Positions 18,345 to 38,290 of a DNA stretch of 64,000 nucleotides are shown here, one piece after another. The position numbers and the translations under genes are program-made. Where the stretch lies: positions 129,838 through 193,837 of the forward strand of contig SVJA01000003.1 of NCBI GenBank assembly GCA_015069195.1, in the 5' to 3' direction. The notes under the pieces were generated by a model. That model did not search any database, was not told where the DNA came from, and was given only the letters and a program-made list of their open reading frames with translations. The DNA comes from Oscillospiraceae bacterium (lineage in GTDB: Bacteria; Bacillota; Clostridia; UBA1212). Position 1 is the stretch's first letter. Each line of letters begins with the position of its first letter.

Positions 18345-20759
18345 TTATTGGTTAAATCGATAAGCTGCGCTTTCATAGAATGTACCGCCGCCTTTTTCTC
18401 CGATGACTCGGAGTGTTATGATATCCATTTCGCTAAAACCGTCGCTGTAGCCTTTTAAAATGGCGTTTTCTGCGTCCGTATAGGTTAAGTCGTAAACTTT
18501 GCCGTTTATTACGATGACGCAGTTTTCGGTCAGATTTTGACCTTTTATCAAATATTCGTCAGTGCCACTTCCAGAGGGCGTAATGGAGTCGATTTTGATT
18601 TCGTTGAGACCGATTTTGTATTCGTTTGTATATTTATCATGATTGCATTCCTCAAAGAGCAGATAGTGTTGGAGAATAGCATACTTTTCAAGATAATCGG
18701 TCTGATCATTATAAAGCTTATGGAATTTGTTCATAAGAGTTCCGTTGATGGATATTTCATCGCAGAGGAATGTAGAAAGATTAAACAATTCCATATCCAT
18801 ATCGGATTTCTTTTCGATACCGAGGTTATTCCATGTGAAGAACTGCGATGTGAACTTCTGGTTATCATCCATTGCCTCGACACCGTAAAAGAGTGACGGC
18901 AGATGATCGGAGTAGAAGAGCACATATGTGGGTTCGTTTCTTTCTTCAAGGTACTTTACGAGATCCTGAATGACCTTGTCGAATAACTCGAGTTGGCTGA
19001 GGTAATATTCTACACGAGCCTCTAGTTTTTCGTCTTCGAAGTTTTCCATAACGAGCGGATATTCGCCGTCGTAAGGATTGTATTTCCCGTGGAGCTGAAC
19101 ACTGACGGTGAATATAAAATCATTCCCCTCGGTGCTGTTTAATACTTTGTCGATTTCTGTAATGAGAATCTGATCATTAGCCCAGATTGCCCCTTCTCTT
19201 TTTTCGACGCCCGGCATCATTTCGTAAGGAATAAATGTGTTAAATCCGAGTTTGTCGTAAACTTTGTCTCTGTCGAAAAATTCACCCTGGTACGAGTGGA
19301 TGGCAGTTGTAGAATACCCAAGCTCTTCAAAACGACGTGCAAGGCTGTCTACGCTGTTTTCGTAAAGGTGTGTAACATACGGATTGTAGCCGTTGGGAAG
19401 GAAATCCATATTAAGACCTGTGAGAAACTCGAATTCGCTTTTAACAGTCTGACCTCCGAATATCGGTACATCAATGGTTCCGGATGTGTTTTCTGCAATA
19501 AGACTTCTTATATAGGGCATAGGATCGCGCTCAAAGACAAGATCCGGATATGCGTTCTTAAAGAGATACGGATCACAGAATGATTCGAGCTGGATAACAA
19601 TGACATTCTGAACTTCTTTAGAGTCAGTAACCGGCTTGTAGTCATTTTTTACATCTTCGATTATTTCGCCAGCTGTTTCGGACGAATAACCTACAGGCTC
19701 GGTAACTGTAGAGTTGAGTACATAGTTGAAGAAACTGAAAATAAATCCGTTTGTATGGTAGGTTGCTCTTACATATTTGTTTTGTGTGTTTGTGTATGAA
19801 AGACCTCTGACCCCGAAGAATGATGTGACGGACACAATAACAACAACAAATGAGAGTAAAAGATTTGTGAGTTTAAAGGGCACTTTTTGTTCTTTTTTTG
19901 CGAGGGAAACTATTACGGCGATAAGTAAAATCACTCCGGTAACAGTGAGTATAAATGTGCCTACGGATATATACTTTCCTGCTGCGGCAAGACCTTCGGA
20001 AATATTAAATACGTCAAGTAATAAAACAGGCTCGTAAACGTTGCTGGATTTGAGATAGCTTATGATTGCAATTATTATCCAGAAAGCCGAACAAAGTGAG
20101 AATGTCAGCTTTTTTCTTCGTACAAACATTACAAAGAATGAGCACACGAAAAATACAAGAATATTGTTTGCAAAGTAGTCAGGGTTATTGAAAAATGATA
20201 CGAATGCTTTGTGGAGATTCAGGAACGGCAGTGATGTGTTGAGAAGCTGTATGATTTCCATAATCAATACTACAATTGCATAGGAGTAGAGCCACTTGCA
20301 CATAGAAGTATAGAACTTTTTGTATCTGTCGTTTTGTACTTTGTCCTTTTCGTAGAAAAAGAATACAACCGCAATCATTGCACCAATAAGTGCTACCGCC
20401 AAAACTCCCCACCATTTAAAACCGGAAACAAATGTGAGCCAGGTAAGCCAGATCGTCGCACCGATTGAAAAAACGGTCTTTCGCCTGTCGAAAATAAAAG
20501 ACGGCAGCACAAACAATAAAAGGATTACGCTACGCGGTATAATATTGAATAAAACGCGTGGAAAATCGCTGCTGACATCGGTTGTCCACGGTGTGACAAA
20601 TAATGAAACAGCAGACAACAATACTATAGCCATAAACCAAGGCAATATATATTTAGCATTTTCCTTAGCATAACAATAAAGTTCCGAAAAACCTTCTTTA
20701 AATGATTTTTTTATGCGAACCGACAATTTTTCTTTTTCGGCTGAAGAAACCCTTTTCAT
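18345..20759 (-). CDS. LTA-synthase (LtaS)/sulfatase-family membrane protein, 804 aa, extended polytopic N-terminus and extra C-terminal domain
   Basis: NVIVIQLESF motif and sulfatase fold residues; ~10 predicted TM helices at N-terminus. Confidence 0.8.
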   Translation of the reverse strand: MKRVSSAEKEKLSVRIKKSFKEGFSELYCYAKENAKYILPWFMAIVLLSAVSLFVTPWTTDVSSDFPRVLFNIIPRSVILLLFVLPSFIFDRRKTVFSIGATIWLTWLTFVSGFKWWGVLAVALIGAMIAVVFFFYEKDKVQNDRYKKFYTSMCKWLYSYAIVVLIMEIIQLLNTSLPFLNLHKAFVSFFNNPDYFANNILVFFVCSFFVMFVRRKKLTFSLCSAFWIIIAIISYLKSSNVYEPVLLLDVFNISEGLAAAGKYISVGTFILTVTGVILLIAVIVSLAKKEQKVPFKLTNLLLSFVVVIVSVTSFFGVRGLSYTNTQNKYVRATYHTNGFIFSFFNYVLNSTVTEPVGYSSETAGEIIEDVKNDYKPVTDSKEVQNVIVIQLESFCDPYLFKNAYPDLVFERDPMPYIRSLIAENTSGTIDVPIFGGQTVKSEFEFLTGLNMDFLPNGYNPYVTHLYENSVDSLARRFEELGYSTTAIHSYQGEFFDRDKVYDKLGFNTFIPYEMMPGVEKREGAIWANDQILITEIDKVLNSTEGNDFIFTVSVQLHGKYNPYDGEYPLVMENFEDEKLEARVEYYLSQLELFDKVIQDLVKYLEERNEPTYVLFYSDHLPSLFYGVEAMDDNQKFTSQFFTWNNLGIEKKSDMDMELFNLSTFLCDEISINGTLMNKFHKLYNDQTDYLEKYAILQHYLLFEECNHDKYTNEYKIGLNEIKIDSITPSGSGTDEYLIKGQNLTENCVIVINGKVYDLTYTDAENAILKGYSDGFSEMDIITLRVIGEKGGGTFYESAAYRFNQ

Positions 20760-24610: not shown

Positions 24611-24699
24611 AGTATTTTTCGGTTGTGAGAATTTGTGTATAGGTGTATTATATTTGTGCAAATAAACTTTATTTACAGCAATTTCCGGGATTGATAGAT

Positions 24700-26712
24700 A
24701 TGCACAGAATTCTTCTTGATAAATCAAAAATTATTGTGTTTTTACTGATTGTATCGGTTATTTTCGTTTTTGCATCTTGTGCGGGGCAGGCGGAGAATAC
24801 ATTGTTCCCTTCCGAAAATGAGACTACGGCAGAAGTTTCGGTTCCGTCATCGTCAAATTCTTTCAATGTAAAAACTTTTGAAAGTTTAGAGGCGATTTCC
24901 GCATACAGCCATTGTGAAAAAGTGACAATACAAGGAAATATAGAACTTGCCGGGGATATTGTGTTTAATAATCCTGTCGATATAACGGTAAAGGGTTTTA
25001 TTGTGTCAAATACGCATTCCGTTATTGTAAAGAGTGATAAAAAAACCGTGATAAATGTAGATATAACATCCGGAAGTACTGTATCCGAGGGCGCAATAAT
25101 AATTGATGCCCCGAATTCTGCATTGAATTGGACAGGCGGCTGTGTGCCGGGCGTAGAGCATGTAATTGAAAATATGAATGTGAAGTCATTTAATGACAAT
25201 GACCTGAGCGAAAGGCTTACGGGCGGAACGGGCAAATCTGTTTTTGAAAGCGTTTCACTAAAAGATCCGAAAGGCTCTGATATCGGTTGTGAGTTCTCGG
25301 TAAAAGGGAATGTAATAACTGTACTTTATCCTTTTTCTTTGCATGAAAATAAATTGCGTGATTCCGAAATAGAAATTTCAGCGTCTGATTGTAAAGAAAA
25401 ATTAATTACGGACAGGAATAAAAATAAAGCGGACAAGCTTTCCCTTAACGGTAAGTATGTGTTGACGTTGAGTGACGACGAAGGCAATACACGCGGATAT
25501 TATTTAAATATAAAACGTCGATGTGAAAGTCTTCCGGTTATTTCAGTTTATACGGATGGCGGAAAGAGCATAGACAGCAAAGAAACATATGTTTCGGCTC
25601 AGCTTGGAATTGATTGCAGCGGTTCGAAGGAATACAAAAATTTTTCACTTGATACAAAATCAGTGGGAATTAAAGGTCGTGGAAATGCATCGTGGAATTA
25701 CACTGACAAAAAAGCGTACAGACTTAAATTTGATGAAAAAGTTTCTGTTTTAGGTATGAAAGCCGACAAAGATTGGGTTCTTGTGCCAAATTACTTTGAT
25801 AAAAGTCTGATACGGAATGTTACTGCGCACGAACTTGCAAAGCAGATGGAAAATCTTGAGTACACGCCTACTCATATTTTGGTGGATTTGTTTTTGAACG
25901 GCGAGTATCGCGGTGTCTATACGATTGCTGATAAGATAGAGGTATCAAATAACAAGGTTGATATCGAAACCTCCGACAACGTAGTAAATCCGGGATTTTT
26001 GATAGAGATAGGTTGGGATTATTCATCTGAAAACATATATGGTAAAGACTATTTTGATGTTGAAATTATAAAGAGACTGTATGTAAAAGATCCGGAAATT
26101 ACGTCAAGATATAACAGCCGTATGAACGATATTATCGAGTATGTAAGATTGACGGACAGGGCGATTTCGTCAGGCGAGGGATACGAGAAATACATCGATG
26201 TTGATTCAATGGTAGATTGGTTTATAATCGCCGAACTCACAAACAATACTGAGATGGCATTTTACAGGAGTTGTTATTTTTACAGAGAAGAGGGAGGCAA
26301 AATTAAAATGGGCCCCGTCTGGGACTTTGATATGGCATTCGGAAACCACAGCGCAGATATATCCGGATATGACGGATGGGCAACTGCTGAGGCAGAGTTT
26401 GCGTATGTAAATGACACATGGACTACTTATCTTATAAAAGATAAAGTGTTTATGGATAAAGTACGTGCACGCTGGAATGAAAAGAAAGAAATCCTTTTAA
26501 AGACTGCAGAAGATACAATAGACAATTCTCTGGCGATAATAGGTGATTCGCAAACAGAAAACTTCAAAAAGTGGGATATTCTAGGCAAGCAAATCGGAGA
26601 GGGAAATGTCGATTACAATGAGTATGATACATACGAAAAGCAGGTTGAATATGTGCGTGAATTTGTGGAAAAACGTGCGGAATGGATGACCAATCGGCTG
26701 AACAACGGTTGA
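24700..26712 (+). CDS. CotH-family (spore-coat protein H kinase fold) lipoprotein
   Basis: Lipoprotein signal peptide ...VFASC from ATG 24700; CotH motifs GRGNASWNY, YRLKF, LRN; upstream GTG 24643 start less likely. Confidence 0.8.
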   Translation: MHRILLDKSKIIVFLLIVSVIFVFASCAGQAENTLFPSENETTAEVSVPSSSNSFNVKTFESLEAISAYSHCEKVTIQGNIELAGDIVFNNPVDITVKGFIVSNTHSVIVKSDKKTVINVDITSGSTVSEGAIIIDAPNSALNWTGGCVPGVEHVIENMNVKSFNDNDLSERLTGGTGKSVFESVSLKDPKGSDIGCEFSVKGNVITVLYPFSLHENKLRDSEIEISASDCKEKLITDRNKNKADKLSLNGKYVLTLSDDEGNTRGYYLNIKRRCESLPVISVYTDGGKSIDSKETYVSAQLGIDCSGSKEYKNFSLDTKSVGIKGRGNASWNYTDKKAYRLKFDEKVSVLGMKADKDWVLVPNYFDKSLIRNVTAHELAKQMENLEYTPTHILVDLFLNGEYRGVYTIADKIEVSNNKVDIETSDNVVNPGFLIEIGWDYSSENIYGKDYFDVEIIKRLYVKDPEITSRYNSRMNDIIEYVRLTDRAISSGEGYEKYIDVDSMVDWFIIAELTNNTEMAFYRSCYFYREEGGKIKMGPVWDFDMAFGNHSADISGYDGWATAEAEFAYVNDTWTTYLIKDKVFMDKVRARWNEKKEILLKTAEDTIDNSLAIIGDSQTENFKKWDILGKQIGEGNVDYNEYDTYEKQVEYVREFVEKRAEWMTNRLNNG

Positions 26713-29290: not shown

Positions 29291-31720
29291 ATGCGAAAAG
29301 AACATATTGAATTATTTGAAAAAGTAAAAAAACTCGGTCAGGAGCAGCTGTTAGCTTTTTACGAAGAGCTTTCTGCTGAAGAGCAGGATGCATTGGTTGC
29401 TGATATAGAAAGTATCGATTTTGCATTGATGAAGGAGCTTTTTGAAAATGCAGGAAAGCCGACTGCAAACAATAAGGACGCTGTTTTGTCTCCCATAGAG
29501 GCTGCTGACAAAACAAATATGTCTGCAGAGCTTGCCGATAAGTTTGTTACGGCAGGAGATAGAGAACTTTCGAAAGGCAGAGTAGCAGCTGTTACGATGG
29601 CAGGCGGACAGGGTTCGAGACTCGGACACGATGGTCCGAAAGGTACTTATGATATAGGACTTCCTTCACATAAGTCACTTTTTGAGATACAGTGCGACGG
29701 ACTTAAAAAGATTTCCGGAAAGTGCGGCAAAAACATTCCGTGGTACATAATGACAAGTCAGATAAATCACGCTGACACAGTTGCTTTCTTCAAAGAAAAC
29801 AATTACTTCGGATATTCCAAGGATGATATTTTTTTCTTCCCGCAGAATATGATACCGGTTGTTTCGATGGACGGAAAACTTCTTCTTGAGAGCAAAAGCA
29901 AAGTTCTCAGAAGTCCCGACGGAAACGGCGGTCTTTTCTCAGCGGTAGTCAGCTCCGGTGCTCTTGCAGACATGCAGAAACGCGGCGTAAAATGGGTGTT
30001 TATTTGCGGAATAGATAACTGTCTGGTAAATATGGTTGATCCTATGTTTGTAGGTTACACATTGGAGTCAGGCGTACCTGCTTCTGCAAAATCTTTCGTA
30101 AAGAGAAGTTTTGATGAGAAGGCAGGTATTTTGTGTCGCAAGGATGGAAAGCCGGGAGTTATAGAATATACCGAGGTTCCTGAGAAAGAAGCGAAGATGA
30201 CCGATGAAAACGGTTGCTTTGTATACGGTGACGCAAATGTTCTGAACTACGTTTTTGATATAAGCGTTCTTGAGAGCATTGCCGGAAACGGAATGTGTTA
30301 CCATACCGCTTGTAAGAAAATTACTTACTTAAACAGCGACGGCGAAATTGTTACTTCAAAGTCTCCCGATGCATATAAATTTGAATTGTTCTTATTTGAT
30401 GCATTCGATTTTATCGACGATATGAGAATACTCAGAATAGACAGAAAACTCGAGTTTGCACCGGTAAAGAACAAAGAAGGAGAGGACAGCCCGGCTTGGG
30501 CAAGAGATTTGTATATGAAAGCTAATAAGATTCAGATGAAAACGCCCCTCGTTGAGATGGACGGCGACGAGATGACAAGAATTGTATGGAAAAAGATAAA
30601 AGATATTCTTCTTACTCCTTACATTGACCTTAAAACTGAGTACTATGACCTCGGTATAGAAAACAGAGATGCGACAGATGACCAGGTTACAAAGGATTCA
30701 GCAAATGCTACTAAAAAATACGGTGTAGCAGTAAAATGTGCGACAATCACGCCCAATGCCGCACGTGTAAAAGAGTTCAATTTAAAGAAAATGTACAAGA
30801 GCCCGAACGGCACAATCCGTTCCATTCTGGATGGCACCGTGTTCCGTGCACCTATCCTTGCTGACGGTATCAGCCCCCTTGTAAAAGGCTGGGAGAAACC
30901 TATCGTTATCGCAAGACATGCGTACGGTGACATTTATTCGGCTATCGATGCTAAGGTTCAGAAAGGTTCGACGGCGGAACTCGTAATTACAGCACCTGAC
31001 GGAACCGTTACAAAATCTGTTATCCACGATTTCGCAAAGACAGACGGTATCGTAATGGGTATGCATAACGAGGATTCTTCGATAGAAGGTTTTGCGAGAG
31101 CTTGTTTTGAATATGCTATATCTGAGAAAATGGATTTGTGGTTCTCCTCAAAGGATACCATTTCAAAGACTTATGACCACCATTTCAAAGATATTTTCAA
31201 TGATCTTTACGAAAATGAGTACAAGGGAAGATTTGAAGCACTCGGAATTACATACTTCTACACATTGATTGACGATGCGATTGCAAGAGTTATGAAATCA
31301 AAGGGCGGATTTATTTGGGCTTGTAAGAACTATGACGGTGACGTATTCTCCGATATGCTTGCAACTGCTTTCGGAAGCCTTGCTATGATGACATCGGTAC
31401 TTGTATCGCCTCACGGTTATTTTGAGTACGAGGCTGCTCACGGAACTATTCCGAGACATTACCATAAGTACCTTGCAGGAGAGAAAACTTCGACCAACCC
31501 GATTGCTACAATATTTGCATGGACTGGTGCTTTGGCAAAGAGAGGCGAGATGGACGGTATCGACGAATTGGTTTCATTTGCAAAAAGAATGGAAGATGCA
31601 GTTCTCGAAACAGTTGGTTCAGGTTATATGACAGGTGACCTTGCACTTATTTCGGAACTTCCCGAAAAACATGTACTTGACCTTGATGAGTTCCTTAACA
31701 AGGTTGCTTCAAATCTTTAA
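29291..31720 (+). CDS. in-frame fusion: UDP-sugar (UDP-GlcNAc-type, UDPGP family) pyrophosphorylase domain (aa 1-415) :: NADP-dependent isocitrate dehydrogenase, eukaryote-like subfamily II (aa 416-809)
   Basis: MAGGQGSRLG / PDGNGG UDPGP motifs; then MKTPLVEMDGDEMTRIVW... IDH; no stop or RBS at junction 30536. Confidence 0.8.
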   Translation: MRKEHIELFEKVKKLGQEQLLAFYEELSAEEQDALVADIESIDFALMKELFENAGKPTANNKDAVLSPIEAADKTNMSAELADKFVTAGDRELSKGRVAAVTMAGGQGSRLGHDGPKGTYDIGLPSHKSLFEIQCDGLKKISGKCGKNIPWYIMTSQINHADTVAFFKENNYFGYSKDDIFFFPQNMIPVVSMDGKLLLESKSKVLRSPDGNGGLFSAVVSSGALADMQKRGVKWVFICGIDNCLVNMVDPMFVGYTLESGVPASAKSFVKRSFDEKAGILCRKDGKPGVIEYTEVPEKEAKMTDENGCFVYGDANVLNYVFDISVLESIAGNGMCYHTACKKITYLNSDGEIVTSKSPDAYKFELFLFDAFDFIDDMRILRIDRKLEFAPVKNKEGEDSPAWARDLYMKANKIQMKTPLVEMDGDEMTRIVWKKIKDILLTPYIDLKTEYYDLGIENRDATDDQVTKDSANATKKYGVAVKCATITPNAARVKEFNLKKMYKSPNGTIRSILDGTVFRAPILADGISPLVKGWEKPIVIARHAYGDIYSAIDAKVQKGSTAELVITAPDGTVTKSVIHDFAKTDGIVMGMHNEDSSIEGFARACFEYAISEKMDLWFSSKDTISKTYDHHFKDIFNDLYENEYKGRFEALGITYFYTLIDDAIARVMKSKGGFIWACKNYDGDVFSDMLATAFGSLAMMTSVLVSPHGYFEYEAAHGTIPRHYHKYLAGEKTSTNPIATIFAWTGALAKRGEMDGIDELVSFAKRMEDAVLETVGSGYMTGDLALISELPEKHVLDLDEFLNKVASNL

Positions 31721-33131: not shown

Positions 33132-33199
33132 TAAGTTGACTTTCAAAGCCGATGACTGAGTTTTCTCTGCCGTCGGCTTTTATTCTATGGAGGATTTGC

Positions 33200-35566
33200 A
33201 TGGGAAATTTACAAGCAAAGAAAAGAATAGTATGTATGATGCTAGCACTGGTGTTTTCGTTGCAGTTGTTTTTGTTACCTGAAATGGTCTCTCACGGAGC
33301 ACAAAGTACAGAACTGACATTTAACGGTGAAAAAGTTGCAGCAAACATTAGTGGTTATTCTTCTGCCAATAACGGCAACTATACTTTTTCTTCAAAACTT
33401 ACAATAGAGTTTGATGAACCGAGCAAGGGATATTTTAACCGTTATACAATCGAGTATATTTCTGATGTTTACATCAGCGGTACTGTTTATTATAAGCTTG
33501 ACGGCCGTACAAAAAGAGAGGAATTCTTTCTTGAGAGTGGTACAAAAGCATCGTTTTCGTCACTTATAGACGGATATCTTGATTCTAAAACAGGAAACCG
33601 ATTGGAAAAGATTGTTTTCGAGCCGCTTTCAAAAGATACTGCTTCGCTCAGGATTTTGTCGATAAAAACAACAACATACGATGTTTTTAAAAGTGAGACT
33701 GCATACATAGAAAATGACCGTTTCAAAGTAGGTTGCTGCCTTATATGGGGTGGCGGTCTTAACTATATCGAAGATAAAAAAGATAATGATTCTACCGTGA
33801 CCAACATGCTCAATCATTGCGATACGGGACGATTGGTTCAGCAGTCTTATTACGGCACATCGGAATCTCCGTACAGACCGGGTTACTATAATAACTCAGT
33901 GTGGGGATACAATCCGGTGCAGGGCGGAGACCAGCACGGAAACAAGAGTAAGTTGGTGGATTTTTCGATAAATACAGATACAATTTATGTGAAGTGCAGA
34001 CCTCTTGACTGGTCAAAAGACGATGAGGCGACTCCTTCGTATATGGAAAATGTGTACAAGCTAGAAAAGGATCATATAAAAGTCGATAACAGATTTATTG
34101 ATTTTTCGGGTTACAGTCACGGTAAGGCAAGACACCAGGAGCTTCCGGCTTTTTATACGATAAGCTATCTCGATACATTTACTTTCTACAACGGAACAAA
34201 ACCGTGGACGGGAGGTGATCTTACTGTAAAAAAGAATCTTCCGTTCTGGGGAGATCCTTCAACAAACGCACAGTGCTATTTCAATGTGAAGAAGGGCAAT
34301 ACAGAGACTTGGTGTGCATGGACAAGCAGTGAGAAAAAATACGGACTCGGACTCTATACGCCAAATGTAAGTATTTTACTTGCAGGAAGACACGCATACA
34401 ACGGAAGTAAAGATCCGGCAGATAGTGCGACAAATTATGTTGCTCCCCTCATAACATCACTTATGCAAAGTTATGAGCCTTTCCAGTATAGTTACTATAT
34501 TACCGCAGGCTCTGTAGAAACAATAAGATCGGTATTCACACAAAATAAAACAAACCAGACTTATGCGGATTTATCATATGATACGACAAATCTTTCTTTT
34601 GACAAATCATATGAAGTGAATGCACTTACCGGCATAAAAAATGTAACGATTACTCACGATGCAACCAAAGGCGCTGCGGTGTATAAAGCTCCTGCGACGG
34701 CAACTTCATATAAAGGCGATTGTGATTCTTATTCGTACATTTATTTTTCAAGTGATGTAAATACGCAGAATTACAGATACATAGTTTTTTCGTATATGTT
34801 GCCAACGACAAATATGACAAATGACTATAACGCTGAGTTTTTTGTTTGTACAGGTACACGTCAGAAAGCTGAGAGCGGATATTCGCACAAGGAGAGTCTG
34901 ACACGCGACGGCAAGTTCCATTCGGTAGTAATAGATATGTATACAAAGAAAGCCGAAAACGGAAGTTATCTGTGGCCGTCGGGCGGAGAGAGACTAAACT
35001 GTATAAGGCTTGATTTTGACAAAGCCATGCCTAATGACATGTTGTATATAACAGGTTTTGGACTTGCCAAGACTCTTTCGGAAGCGAATAATTATGCATC
35101 TGAATTCTTGAAAACTCCGTCATCCGGCGGAAGTACAACTCCGTCACAAACACCCGGATCGAATATAGTTATCCCTACATTTGATCCTGAGATAACATCA
35201 GGTGTGGCTACAGCACCATCTGTTCCTGCTACATCAGCACCGGCAGGTGAAACTGAGCAACCGACTCAGACTCCTGATTGTGAATCACCACTGGTTACTG
35301 ACGTCCCTGTAAGTCCGGGAAATAATGAGAATTCTGACGAAAACGTTGATTATCCTGATGATGAATATATCGAAGAGGATGAATACAATTCCTCAGGAAT
35401 TAGTATGTTCGGCATAATTGCGATAATAGCAGGTGTCGGGTTACTCATTATCGCAGGTGCAATTATACTGATAGTGGTTTTGGTAAAAAAGAAAAAGAAA
35501 AAAGCAGCGGCAAATATCGCAGCTGAACCTGCTGTCGATCTTGAAAACGATTGCAGTATAATTTAA
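33200..35566 (+). CDS. surface protein paralog A: signal peptide, conserved Cys/Trp-rich central domain, beta-rich domain, P/T/S linker, C-terminal TM anchor + KKKKKK
   Basis: ATG 33200 after GGAGGA; ~50% identical to downstream paralog; no known family recognised. Confidence 0.75.
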   Translation: MGNLQAKKRIVCMMLALVFSLQLFLLPEMVSHGAQSTELTFNGEKVAANISGYSSANNGNYTFSSKLTIEFDEPSKGYFNRYTIEYISDVYISGTVYYKLDGRTKREEFFLESGTKASFSSLIDGYLDSKTGNRLEKIVFEPLSKDTASLRILSIKTTTYDVFKSETAYIENDRFKVGCCLIWGGGLNYIEDKKDNDSTVTNMLNHCDTGRLVQQSYYGTSESPYRPGYYNNSVWGYNPVQGGDQHGNKSKLVDFSINTDTIYVKCRPLDWSKDDEATPSYMENVYKLEKDHIKVDNRFIDFSGYSHGKARHQELPAFYTISYLDTFTFYNGTKPWTGGDLTVKKNLPFWGDPSTNAQCYFNVKKGNTETWCAWTSSEKKYGLGLYTPNVSILLAGRHAYNGSKDPADSATNYVAPLITSLMQSYEPFQYSYYITAGSVETIRSVFTQNKTNQTYADLSYDTTNLSFDKSYEVNALTGIKNVTITHDATKGAAVYKAPATATSYKGDCDSYSYIYFSSDVNTQNYRYIVFSYMLPTTNMTNDYNAEFFVCTGTRQKAESGYSHKESLTRDGKFHSVVIDMYTKKAENGSYLWPSGGERLNCIRLDFDKAMPNDMLYITGFGLAKTLSEANNYASEFLKTPSSGGSTTPSQTPGSNIVIPTFDPEITSGVATAPSVPATSAPAGETEQPTQTPDCESPLVTDVPVSPGNNENSDENVDYPDDEYIEEDEYNSSGISMFGIIAIIAGVGLLIIAGAIILIVVLVKKKKKKAAANIAAEPAVDLENDCSII

Positions 35567-35585
35567 TTGAAATAAAAAATAGGAA

Positions 35586-35620
35586 AGGCTCCCTCGGCTG
35601 TGCCGGGGGAGCCTTTTTAT
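35586..35620 (+). terminator. intrinsic terminator between paralogs
   Basis: GGCTCCC...GGGAGCC + TTTTTATG. Confidence 0.6.
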
Positions 35621-35772
35621 GTGGCGAAGCTACCGATAATCGTAAGTGAAAAAATTTGCAACTAAAACCGTTTTTTTACGAGATATAGACATATAAGTTG
35701 TGTTTTATTTTACAATATTGTTAAATAATATTAACGATTTTGTTTCAAAAATATTTTATAAGGAGATTTCGG

Positions 35773-38190
35773 ATGATACGAAAGTTTTTTAATAATGAAA
35801 CAAGTAAAAAAATAGTTTCGTTATTTATTGCGATGATATTTACAGTACAGTTGTTTTTTGTGCCGGGAATGGTTTCTCACGGTGCAGAAAATGTGAACCT
35901 TTCTTTTAACGGAAAGAATGTCCCTGTAAGTGTAAGCGGTTATACATCTGCATCACAAGGTCGATATACTTTTAAATCAAAACTTACTTTTGATTTTTCA
36001 AACCCGGCCGGTGCGAAGTTTAACCGATATACTTTAAACTATACTGCGAATGCTTGTATAGGAGGACGAATATATTATAAAGTGTCCGGTGCGACTAAAA
36101 GTGAAGAATTCTTTTTGGAAAGCGGCACAAATGTTTCATTTTCGTCATTGATTGACGGATACCTTGATTCAAAGCAGGGCAGCAGTATTGAGAAAATTGT
36201 TTTTGAACCGCGTTCTGCGTCTACCGCACAGCTTAAAATAAGTTCCGTAAAAACCGTTGTGTACGAAGTGTATAAAAATCAGACGGTGTACATAGAAAAT
36301 GACCGCTTTAAAGTAGGTTGCTACCTTATATGGGGCGGCGGTCTTAACTACATCGAAGATAAAAAAGACAACGATCCTACCGTGACGAATATGCTTAATC
36401 ATTGTGATACGGGACGTTTGGTACAGCAGTCATATTACGGTTCTATGGAATATCCGTATCAGCCGGGAAATTATAACGGTTCTACATGGGCATATAACCC
36501 TGTACAGGGCGGTGACCAGCACGGAAATAAAAGCAAATTAGTTGACTTTGTCGTAACGTCAAATTCTATTTACGTCAAATGCAGACCGCTTGATTGGTCT
36601 AAAAATAACGTACTGACTTTTTCGTATATGGAGAATGTTTATAAACTGGAAAATGATCACATAAAAGTCGATAATCGCTTCATTGATTTTTCCGGTTATA
36701 ATCACGGAAGAGGTAAACATCAGGAACTTCCTGCTTTTTATACAATAAGCTATCTTGACACATTTACTTATTATGACGGTAAAGATCCGTGGACAAATGA
36801 TACTCTTACTGTGAAACGAAATCTTCCGTTCTGGGGTAATTCCGCAACAAGCTCTCAGTGTTACTTCGGTATGGAAAATGAAAATACCGAGACTTGGTGT
36901 GCGTGGACCAGCAAAGACAAAGGTTACGGTCTGGGATTGTACACACCGGATGCCAGCATATTGCTTGCAGGCAGATACAACTATAACGGCAGTAAAGAAC
37001 CGAAAAATAGTGCCACAAACTATGTTGCACCGCTTATAACATCAGTAATGCAAAACTATGTTCCGTTTCAATATAGTTACTATATAACTGCAGGTACGGT
37101 GAGTACAATCCGTTCTGTATTTACTAAAAATCATGAAGCGTTGACATCCGGAAGCGACAAGATTGATACAACTAATTTAAGCTTCGATAACGCTTCTGAT
37201 ATAAAGGCATTTTCAACCAGAAAAGATGTAATGATATCTCACGACAAACTTACAGGCTCGGCGGTATTAACTGCGCAGACCCCTTCACTTTCAGGTGCTT
37301 GCGATGCTTATGCTTATTTAAAATTTTCAAATGTAAATACAAAAGACCACAGATATGTCGTTCTTTCATACAAAGTTGAATCTTCTGACCACTATAACTC
37401 ACGCAACCTTGAACTGTTTGTTTGTGCCGGAGATATAGAGGAGGCGACAGGCGGTTATTCTTACAGAGAACGTTTGTCTGTTGATGGTACTTTCCATTCT
37501 TTGATTATAGATATGTGGAATAAGAAAGCTTTTAACGGAAGTGCGCTGTGGCCGTCAGGCGGTGCTCCGCTTCATGCTGTCAGATTGGATTTTGACGGCG
37601 CGAGTGCCGGCGACAGGTTATCCATAACGGGATTTGCTCTTGCGGCATCTTATTCTGAAGCTACGGCGATTGGAAATTCCTTTAACAAGGCGGCAAATTC
37701 TGTGTCAAGTTCAGAAAATGGTTTTACAGCCGGTACAAATATTGTAATACCTACAAAGCCGGCAGCTGACACACCTGCAAAACCGAACAATTCAAATCCG
37801 GGTAATAATAACACAAATAATAATGCTTCGAGCTCAGATAATTACGGTTCAAATTCAGATAATAACAGTACCATTACTGATACAGACAGTACAGATAATT
37901 CGACTGACAATTATCCGAACAACAATTATGATACCGGTGAAGATAATCCGGGAGGCAATTTCGGTGAAGACGGTTATGGTAAAGGCGACGACAATGAAAA
38001 AGGCATGAACATTGTACTTATTGTGTGCATATCTGCTTTTTGCGGTGCTGCAATAGCCGGTATTATTACGACCATTGTTTTACTGATTAAAAAGAAGAAA
38101 AATAAAAAAACACAGGTGCCGGTAAATGAGCAATCGGTAAAAACTGACATTCCTGCCGATGAGGAATTCACGGATTGGAGCATAATATAA
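35773..38190 (+). CDS. surface protein paralog B (same architecture; Asn/Ser/Thr/Asp-rich linker)
   Basis: ATG 35773 after AAGGAG; collinear with paralog A. Confidence 0.75.
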   Translation: MIRKFFNNETSKKIVSLFIAMIFTVQLFFVPGMVSHGAENVNLSFNGKNVPVSVSGYTSASQGRYTFKSKLTFDFSNPAGAKFNRYTLNYTANACIGGRIYYKVSGATKSEEFFLESGTNVSFSSLIDGYLDSKQGSSIEKIVFEPRSASTAQLKISSVKTVVYEVYKNQTVYIENDRFKVGCYLIWGGGLNYIEDKKDNDPTVTNMLNHCDTGRLVQQSYYGSMEYPYQPGNYNGSTWAYNPVQGGDQHGNKSKLVDFVVTSNSIYVKCRPLDWSKNNVLTFSYMENVYKLENDHIKVDNRFIDFSGYNHGRGKHQELPAFYTISYLDTFTYYDGKDPWTNDTLTVKRNLPFWGNSATSSQCYFGMENENTETWCAWTSKDKGYGLGLYTPDASILLAGRYNYNGSKEPKNSATNYVAPLITSVMQNYVPFQYSYYITAGTVSTIRSVFTKNHEALTSGSDKIDTTNLSFDNASDIKAFSTRKDVMISHDKLTGSAVLTAQTPSLSGACDAYAYLKFSNVNTKDHRYVVLSYKVESSDHYNSRNLELFVCAGDIEEATGGYSYRERLSVDGTFHSLIIDMWNKKAFNGSALWPSGGAPLHAVRLDFDGASAGDRLSITGFALAASYSEATAIGNSFNKAANSVSSSENGFTAGTNIVIPTKPAADTPAKPNNSNPGNNNTNNNASSSDNYGSNSDNNSTITDTDSTDNSTDNYPNNNYDTGEDNPGGNFGEDGYGKGDDNEKGMNIVLIVCISAFCGAAIAGIITTIVLLIKKKKNKKTQVPVNEQSVKTDIPADEEFTDWSII

Positions 38191-38241
38191 TAAAATATAT
38201 AAGGATGCTGATTGAAAATCAGCATCTTCTCCTTTAAGTTA

Positions 38242-38290
38242 AAAGCAGGAAGCGCGCGACGGTCATCCGTCGCGCGCTTCCTGCTTTTGA
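38242..38290. terminator. strong bidirectional terminator (19-bp GC stem) between paralog B and azlD
   Basis: AGCAGGAAGCGCGCGACGG-TCAT-CCGTCGCGCGCTTCCTGCT + TTTTG. Confidence 0.7.

Follow-up and report, generated by a model that had tools for sequence, protein, structure and literature searches.

The described proteins closest to those reported here are the aldose 1-epimerases, such as GalM, together with the rhamnogalacturonan lyases and OpgG. In the rhamnogalacturonan lyases of polysaccharide lyase (PL) family 4 a supersandwich catalytic domain is followed by fibronectin type III (FnIII)-like and carbohydrate-binding module (CBM)-like domains. The catalytic domain of OpgG is itself a large beta-sandwich, with a second beta-domain alongside. 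Glycoside hydrolase (GH) family 186 was established from OpgD/OpgG, which are beta-1,2-glucanases, and the best structural match of OpgD among GH enzymes was the GH38 C-terminal domain (2wyh) (PMC10514313). The subject of this report is a pair of adjacent genes, A and B, located in a stretch of 64,000 nucleotides (the window) of contig SVJA01000003.1 from an Oscillospiraceae bacterium (assembly GCA_015069195.1). The conserved core of their products may well be an extracellular carbohydrate-active catalytic module, most likely one cleaving plant polysaccharide; from the modelled fold and the architectures of the family, we regard this as about an even call.

Two co-directional open reading frames (ORFs) were called mechanically in the window, 33152-35566 (A) and 35740-38190 (B, with a TTG start); the start codons used here are given in Table 1. 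A ribosome-binding site (RBS; GGAGG) lies 6 nt 5' of the ATG of gene A, and B is preceded by its own (AAGGAG). The two products are 56% identical across 776 aa (BLASTP), which is far above chance, the identity being ~45-68% in the N-terminal domain, 77% in the central domain and 40-60% in the C-terminal domain. At the DNA level a direct repeat of 300 nt (79% identity) was found at a spacing of 2585 nt. A and B are paralogs with one common layout. This agrees with the initial annotation, which described tandem co-directional paralogs of the same architecture, each with its own RBS, and whose invariant motif blocks were all found in the A/B alignment. The signal peptide, C-terminal hydrophobic anchor, lysine run and lack of LPXTG that it recorded are likewise borne out by hydrophobicity and sequence, export being predicted. 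The central domain that it placed at ~330 aa is present and conserved, its size being corrected to ~293 aa. A and B are the only family copies in the window; a third, shorter copy (P0019, 557 aa, MBE7064769.1) lies outside it in the same genome. Genes identical to A/B were present on 23 metagenomic contigs.

Fold and conservation of the central domain

A and B gave no match in Pfam (E ≤ 1), NCBIfam or PDB sequence searches. The family profile found nothing in the PDB, and a relaxed Pfam search (E ≤ 5) with 50 diverse relatives did not place the central domain. No glycoside hydrolase, lyase or CBM match to A or B was obtained from Pfam or NCBIfam, and precomputed Pfam annotation was blank for nearly all relatives. 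When the family profile was compared by hhalign with GalM and OpgG of E. coli, the probabilities were 0.4% and 0.3%, respectively, which are weak negatives given that single sequences stood on that side.

The ectodomain was modelled with AlphaFold from an alignment holding 76 relatives, giving three beta domains with a predicted local distance difference test (pLDDT) score of 91.8. The central domain modelled alone with AlphaFold2 (AF2) reached a pLDDT of 94.1 and a predicted template-modelling score (pTM) of 0.91. The structure search that the initial annotation had suggested was run with Foldseek against the PDB, and matched the central domain with a probability of 1.00 to many galactose-mutarotase-like members, at template-modelling (TM) scores of 0.45-0.60 and ~10% identity. 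The top matches were stand-alone mutarotases, namely B. subtilis GalM (3mwx/4bze; E 3e-9 to 5e-9, TM ~0.5), and further matches included YeaD-type mutarotases and other aldose-1-epimerase-like proteins (TM ~0.5). Mutarotase-like domains of GH38 (query TM score, TMq, 0.60) and GH129 (0.56) were also matched, as were those of GH2, GH36, PL26, PL27, PL8 and YidC, while the full-ectodomain model additionally matched the surface glycan-binding protein SGBP-B of B. thetaiotaomicron. The predicted fold of the central domain is clearly the galactose-mutarotase-like beta-supersandwich, a large fold of ~270-340 residues. The domain had been considered unplaceable in the initial annotation; it is unclassified by sequence (Pfam, NCBIfam and PDB), yet classified by fold on the AlphaFold model.

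The central domain is the most conserved part of the protein. Across the 76 relatives 65 of its 293 positions are invariant, including 8 acidic residues as well as Arg, Lys, Gln, Asn, Tyr and Trp, and ~50 positions remain ≥90% conserved in the set with 35-77% identity. The invariant residues (A numbering) include D208, R211, Q214, Q215, Y217, Y218, W235, Y237, N238, Q241, D254, K265, D270, E283, D301, E314, E369 and R443. With regard to the catalytic His/His/Asp/Glu set in the sugar-binding cleft of aldose 1-epimerases, there is a near-invariant His at domain position 148, and an invariant Glu at positions 155 and 210.

Distribution and architecture of the family

A HMMER scan of 1.84 billion cluster representatives returned 2,236 family clusters (counted at 50% identity) at E ≤ 1e-3 and 582 at E ≤ 1e-30, and a scan of one genome per species gave at least 582 family matches. 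The 78 loci that were kept are all from uncultured Clostridia, their metagenome-assembled genomes being labelled Clostridia, Oscillospiraceae or 'Ruminococcus', often with several copies per genome. Their habitats are mostly the rumen, colon, caecum and faeces of goats, sheep, yak, deer, cattle, buffalo and horse. Relatives whose names were looked up were all 'hypothetical protein' except one 'PT domain-containing protein', and a search of the literature, including the motif strings, found no characterised family member.

The N-terminal domain was found together with the central domain in 72 of the 72 N-domain matches (hidden Markov model, HMM; 78 loci and the window), and never alone. The C-terminal sandwich is optional, being present in 48 members of the local set and absent from 26, and the shorter relatives lack it. 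A lipobox-like start was seen in ~120 of 261 relatives by a rough regular expression, a C-terminal helix with a basic cluster ends 22 relatives, and dockerins occur in at least 15 of the 120 closest relatives. Predicted anchoring is interchangeable across the family, by lipobox, helix or dockerin. Among 37 long multi-domain relatives, 11 carry a dockerin, 12 Flg_new repeats, 3 a GDSL esterase and 2 a SASA esterase. The fusions seen were GDSL esterase, dockerin and core; core, dockerin and SASA esterase; and core with SASA. In many dockerin and lipoprotein relatives the anchor is the only domain recognised by Pfam.

The C-terminal domain of A and B was also found on CotH-domain proteins encoded beside family members (L037, 4819-6963; L061, 1427-3583; HMM E ~1e-35); on these profile matches it is a module common to otherwise unrelated, predicted secreted proteins. 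The window has a CotH-kinase-domain protein of its own (24643-26712, + strand), ~6.5 kb upstream of A, which is without this module. At six loci of one clade (L041, L049, L050, L054, L055 and L056) one to three tandem unannotated helix-anchored proteins are encoded directly upstream of the family gene; these are ~520 aa long, with a P/T/E-rich linker, a C-terminal helix and a KKKD end. Towards the C-terminus they show a weak resemblance to the C-domain of A/B (hhalign probability 70%, E = 4e-5). One relative, P0226 (L090, 9396-11093), showed a weak match to the C-terminal sorting domain of the type IX secretion system (PF18962, E = 0.011), which would suggest a Bacteroidota host and transfer outside the Clostridia. 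Its locus was inspected for a polysaccharide utilisation locus; none was seen, the gene standing alone.

Proposed function of the conserved core

A catalytic role of the core is suggested by several observations. Conservation within the protein is highest here, and 65 invariant positions in 293 are more in keeping with an active site than with a binding module. Many dockerin and lipoprotein relatives have no Pfam domain besides the anchor. In a few relatives the core is joined to carbohydrate esterases, an arrangement like that of bifunctional cellulosomal enzymes. Lastly, there is precedent in the fold class, both in the mutarotases and in GH186 OpgD, whose closest structural counterpart among GH enzymes is the GH38 C-terminal domain also matched by the central domain. 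Judging by the esterase fusions and the habitat, the substrate may be an acetylated plant polysaccharide.

Under this proposal A and B would each be transcribed alone, and a cleavable signal peptide would direct their export. Tethering to the cytoplasmic membrane would fall to the single C-terminal helix, with the N-terminus outside and a tail of 26-33 aa inside, and the disordered linker of ~100 aa would serve as a stalk on which the folded ectodomain of 600 aa reaches through the cell wall. Activity would reside in the N-terminal beta-sandwich plus the 293-aa supersandwich, the invariant core of the family, which would cleave plant polysaccharide by hydrolysis or beta-elimination, the substrate lying in a cleft with invariant residues (acidic, basic and aromatic) along its walls. 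The C-terminal beta-sandwich would be an optional accessory module. Duplication would have yielded the two diverged copies, which presumably differ in substrate or regulation.

Several observations weigh against catalysis. There is no sequence link to characterised enzyme families (hhalign probability <1% for GalM and OpgG), and the same fold is non-catalytic in most multi-domain glycosidases and in YidC. For the gene neighbourhood, 566 ORFs from 78 loci were clustered and a Pfam census was made of 108 immediate neighbours; these held 98 Pfam families, with no recurrent carbohydrate-active enzyme (CAZyme) or transporter partner. In the window the pair sits among housekeeping genes.

The strongest competitor is a non-catalytic role of the core in glycan binding or adhesion, by which it would hold the cell or a cellulosome on plant fibre in a way comparable to the Bacteroides surface glycan-binding proteins or to cellulosomal X or CBM modules. 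The SGBP-B match of the ectodomain model points in this direction, as do the giant relatives with Flg_new/Big_3 repeats, which resemble adhesins; no catalytic motif was identified in the core, and mutarotase-like domains are non-catalytic in GH2, GH38, GH36, PL8 and YidC. A binding module accords less well with the very high conservation and the many invariant charged residues, nor does it readily account for the many dockerin or lipoprotein relatives in which Pfam finds nothing but the anchor. We consider such a role rather unlikely, though deserving more weight than the other alternatives discussed below.

A more far-reaching form of the catalytic proposal can be offered only tentatively, and is somewhat doubtful. 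The N-terminal domain and core would constitute a new CAZy family (GH or PL) with a supersandwich catalytic centre, common among the fibre-degrading Clostridia that live in herbivore guts and acting with acetyl esterases on decorated plant polysaccharide. In the A/B clade a PDZ-ligand-like tail would link the enzyme to a partner inside the cell and so serve in signalling, placement or turnover. The Clostridia of these guts are mostly uncultured and have many dockerin-bearing or lipid-anchored proteins without an assigned function. The family comprises more than 2,200 clusters, often has several copies per genome, shows a few esterase and dockerin fusions, and is nameless in the protein-family libraries searched. 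Should the family prove catalytic, the known fibre-degrading repertoire would gain an enzyme class, and there would be another case of catalysis in a usually accessory fold. The domain boundaries, the confident model and the list of invariant residues make it a concrete target for enzyme discovery.

Domain layout and membrane anchoring

The coordinates of the two genes, their domains and the adjoining hairpins are listed in Table 1.

Table 1. Genes A and B, the domains of their products and the neighbouring hairpins (positions in the window).
Feature	Coordinates	Strand	Remarks
Weak hairpin and U-run, possible terminator between upstream PGI and A	33146..33180	+	RNA fold -19.9 kcal/mol, z = -2.5
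Gene A	33200..35566	+	788 aa; identical to P0001 / MBE7064856.1; ATG 33200; RBS GGAGG 33190-33194
A signal peptide	33200..33301	+	MGNLQAKKR, hydrophobic core, VSHGA; hydrophobic segment residues 8-30; cleavage predicted
A N-terminal beta-sandwich	33302..33673	+	AF2 model residues 1-124, block pLDDT 91-97
A central 293-aa domain	33677..34555	+	Predicted galactose-mutarotase-like beta-supersandwich; AF2, Foldseek vs PDB, alignment
A C-terminal beta-sandwich accessory domain	34589..35116	+	AF2 model residues 430-605; HMM searches
A low-complexity linker	35117..35395	+	93 aa, P/S/T/E-rich
A C-terminal transmembrane helix	35390..35497	+	GISMFGIIAIIAGVGLLIIAGAIILIVVLV, runs into KKKKKK
A predicted cytoplasmic tail	35486..35563	+	26 aa, KKKKKKAAANIAAEPAVDLENDCSII
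Intrinsic-terminator-like hairpin between A and B	35582..35618	+	17-bp stem then UUUUUAU; -35.4 kcal/mol, z = -5.8; 0/200 shuffles match
Gene B	35773..38190	+	805 aa; identical to P0006 / MBE7064857.1; ATG 35773; RBS AAGGAG 35760-35765
B signal peptide	35773..35886	+	Ends in VSHGA
B N-terminal beta-sandwich	35896..36255	+	N-domain HMM E = 1e-43
B central mutarotase-like domain	36262..37137	+	77% identical to that of A
B C-terminal beta-sandwich accessory domain	37174..37689	+	C-domain HMM E = 1e-43
B low-complexity linker	37693..38001	+	103 aa, N/S/D/G/T-rich
B C-terminal transmembrane helix	37999..38094	+	Runs into KKKKNKK
B predicted cytoplasmic tail	38089..38187	+	33 aa, ends in ADEEFTDWSII
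Perfect 24-bp GC-rich hairpin 3' of B, with A-run/U-run flanks	38239..38290		-47.4 kcal/mol, z = -10; between convergent B and azlD

Exactly two hydrophobic segments were found in each protein, the N-terminal signal and the C-terminal helix with the lysine run directly after it. Both therefore have the make-up of type I (N-out, C-in) single-pass proteins, the topology following from the positive-inside rule. Based on the signal peptide, the single C-terminal helix and this rule, A and B are predicted to be type I membrane-anchored proteins with a surface-displayed ectodomain. No LPXTG-type motif was found near the anchor of either protein, the sole similar string being an internal LPTTN at residue 534 of A, within the C-domain. 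NCBIfam gave no sorting or anchor-domain match for A or B, and the type I dockerin (PF00404) was absent from both in Pfam. No lipobox was found in either, the signals ending in VSHGA without a Cys. There is nothing unusual in the tandem arrangement, the membrane anchor or the linker.

Transcription units and age of the duplication

The terminator hairpins after A and B were seen by folding the intergenic RNA; a simple consensus scan had missed both. The one beyond B looks like a bidirectional terminator common to B and the convergent azlD. That A and B form separate transcription units is indicated by the strong hairpin downstream of each gene, by their individual RBSs and by an AT-rich spacer that precedes B.

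The duplication of A and B is old. A neighbour-joining tree of the nine closest relatives separates an A clade (P0001-P0005) from a B clade (P0006-P0009). A second organism (L085) carries the tandem pair too, as P0003 and P0008 followed by AzlC and SASA, and in a third (L086) the syntenic slot PGI - gene - AzlD/C - SASA is occupied by one A-type copy only. Synonymous codons have diverged, the same codon being used for ~40-60% of identical amino acids and for 75% in one stretch of 40 codons. Recent gene conversion between A and B was considered and rejected, since the DNA identity peaks at 79% (300 nt) and the synonymous sites have diverged.

Gene neighbourhood

Upstream of A/B the window carries a ribosomal/SecY/RpoA cluster, a hibernation factor, a fusion of UDP-sugar pyrophosphorylase to isocitrate/isopropylmalate dehydrogenase, and phosphoglucose isomerase (PGI). 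Downstream are AzlCD, a SASA esterase, formyltetrahydrofolate synthetase (FTHFS), purine synthesis genes and pyruvate:ferredoxin oxidoreductase (PFOR). The fusion is an 809-aa ORF (29291-31720, + strand) joining PF01704 (residues 91-408) to PF00180 (residues 420-788); it is not an assembly artefact, because the same fusion occurs at the syntenic position in L086. The SASA-type esterase (PF03629; 39496-40965, + strand) is without an obvious signal peptide and lies just past AzlCD, a position kept in L085 and L086. PF03629 is also fused to the family core in P0200 and P0212. On the opposite strand (18345-20759) an 803-aa protein is encoded with a sulfatase-type domain (383-661) after a long N-terminal region, a layout that we take to resemble that of an LtaS-type lipoteichoic acid synthase.

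Among the 78 loci the CAZyme-like neighbours GH78, GH123-like, GH42, CE15 and SASA, and also GDPD and MBOAT, were found at 2-5 loci each. RuvAB and YfhO were considered as functional partners and rejected, their recurrence being synteny within one clade.

Some of these neighbours would suit another function, in which A and B act not on food but on polymers of their own envelope, such as capsule or exopolysaccharide, teichoic acids or wall glycopolymers. Membrane tethering of the two proteins is consistent with it, and the genes follow the pyrophosphorylase fusion and PGI in the window, an order kept in L086; the LtaS-type sulfatase-domain protein and the CotH protein are encoded upstream of A, and YfhO (7), MBOAT (4) and GDPD (4) occur near some loci. 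The terminators, however, set A and B apart from PGI, and the YfhO and RuvAB neighbours reflect the synteny just mentioned. Relatives fused to dockerins or esterases, confinement to the fibre habitats of herbivore guts and several copies per genome fit feeding enzymes better, and an envelope role is accordingly considered improbable.

C-terminal tail

A ends in ...ENDCSII and B in ...EEFTDWSII. The endings of the A clade are DCSII, DCSVI and ECSLL, and those of the B clade TDWSII, TNWSKM and TDWSKL; the shared element is [D/E/N]-[C/W]-S-x-[I/L/M] and not SII itself. In the B clade the last ~nine residues, (D/E)EFT(D/N)WSx-hydrophobic, are kept in tails of 33 to 69 aa. The motif was found in 6 of the 9 closest relatives and was absent from the other 3 and from all 13 other helix-anchored relatives. 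A pattern scan of metagenomes for EEFTDWS-xx-stop gave two chance matches in unrelated genes, and as it also missed the window's own JGI contigs, which carry the exact gene B, its negatives do not amount to absence.

In the initial annotation the terminal SII was put forward as a possible tag for sorting or recognition, here taken as one directing surface localisation. Both paralogs do end in SII, and the last residues are kept in six relatives with tails of 28 to 69 aa. The tail, however, lies after the helix and the lysine run and by the positive-inside rule should be cytoplasmic, unlike a surface sorting tag. Known sorting signals (LPXTG, PEP-CTERM and similar) have their motif on the outer side, before the helix, and no NCBIfam sorting domain was matched. 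The uneven occurrence among relatives tells against the tag as well, and a check for other proteins with this ending found none among the window ORFs. The tag must be regarded as very unlikely.

Conservation of the last residues while the tail length varies suggests selection on the terminal peptide, and the tail is possibly a clade-specific cytoplasmic interaction or turnover signal. The pattern x-S-x-hydrophobic-COOH is similar to class I PDZ ligands and, for the A clade, to a CaaX box as well. The latter (CSII, CSVI, CSLL) was set aside, as Trp takes the position of this Cys in the B clade.

Comparison with known systems

In their anchoring A and B are like the helix-anchored surface proteins of Gram-positive bacteria, which have a signal peptide, an ectodomain, a low-complexity stalk, a hydrophobic helix and a basic stop-transfer cluster. 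Sortase-anchored proteins carry LPXTG, and its absence from A and B implies that they would not be attached by sortase. Cellulosomal proteins carry dockerins; A and B do not, but in relatives from the family a dockerin or a lipobox takes the place of the anchor. Unlike C-terminally helix-anchored or dockerin proteins, A and B have in addition a conserved, predicted cytoplasmic end of the form [D/E/N]-[C/W]-S-x-hydrophobic.

The aldose 1-epimerases (GalM, YeaD; PF01263) have the fold predicted for the central domain and a similar size (~290-340 aa). The central domain is, however, only ~10% identical to GalM, shows no HMM or profile relation to it and falls outside PF01263. GalM is a cytoplasmic, single-domain protein, whereas the family domain is predicted to be extracellular and always follows its own beta-sandwich. 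The motifs also differ, those of the central domain being DTGRLVQQSYYG, YNPVQGGD, SYMEN, QELPAFY and ETWxAW. That the central domain is a true extracellular enzyme of the aldose-1-epimerase type, interconverting anomers or epimerising released sugars, is most improbable, for although its best structural matches are stand-alone mutarotases, it has no sequence relation to GalM (hhalign) and no Aldose_epim match in Pfam, mutarotation is fast without an enzyme, and we know of no reason for a mutarotase to be joined to dockerins or esterases.

The catalytic reading finds its nearest parallels elsewhere. The GH38 C-terminal domain is a structural match both for GH186 OpgD and for the central domain. 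GH186 (OpgD/OpgG, MdoG; PF04349) differs from A and B in having no sequence relation or Pfam match to them and in being periplasmic in Gram-negative bacteria, and OpgG was not among the 50 Foldseek matches listed. The PL26 exo-rhamnogalacturonan lyase (5xqg) is among the fold matches, and its layout of multiple beta-domains is similar to that of A and B; there was no Pfam match of A or B to RhgB_N or any lyase family, and no PL4 structure among the matches listed. The mutarotase-like accessory domains of GH38, GH2 (LacZ domain 5), GH36, GH129 and PL8 share the predicted fold and gave the best TM scores. These accessory domains adjoin a separate catalytic barrel, whereas A and B are without such a domain and the mutarotase-like part is the most conserved. 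What is new here is a large unnamed family, while the fold and this kind of extracellular architecture are already known.

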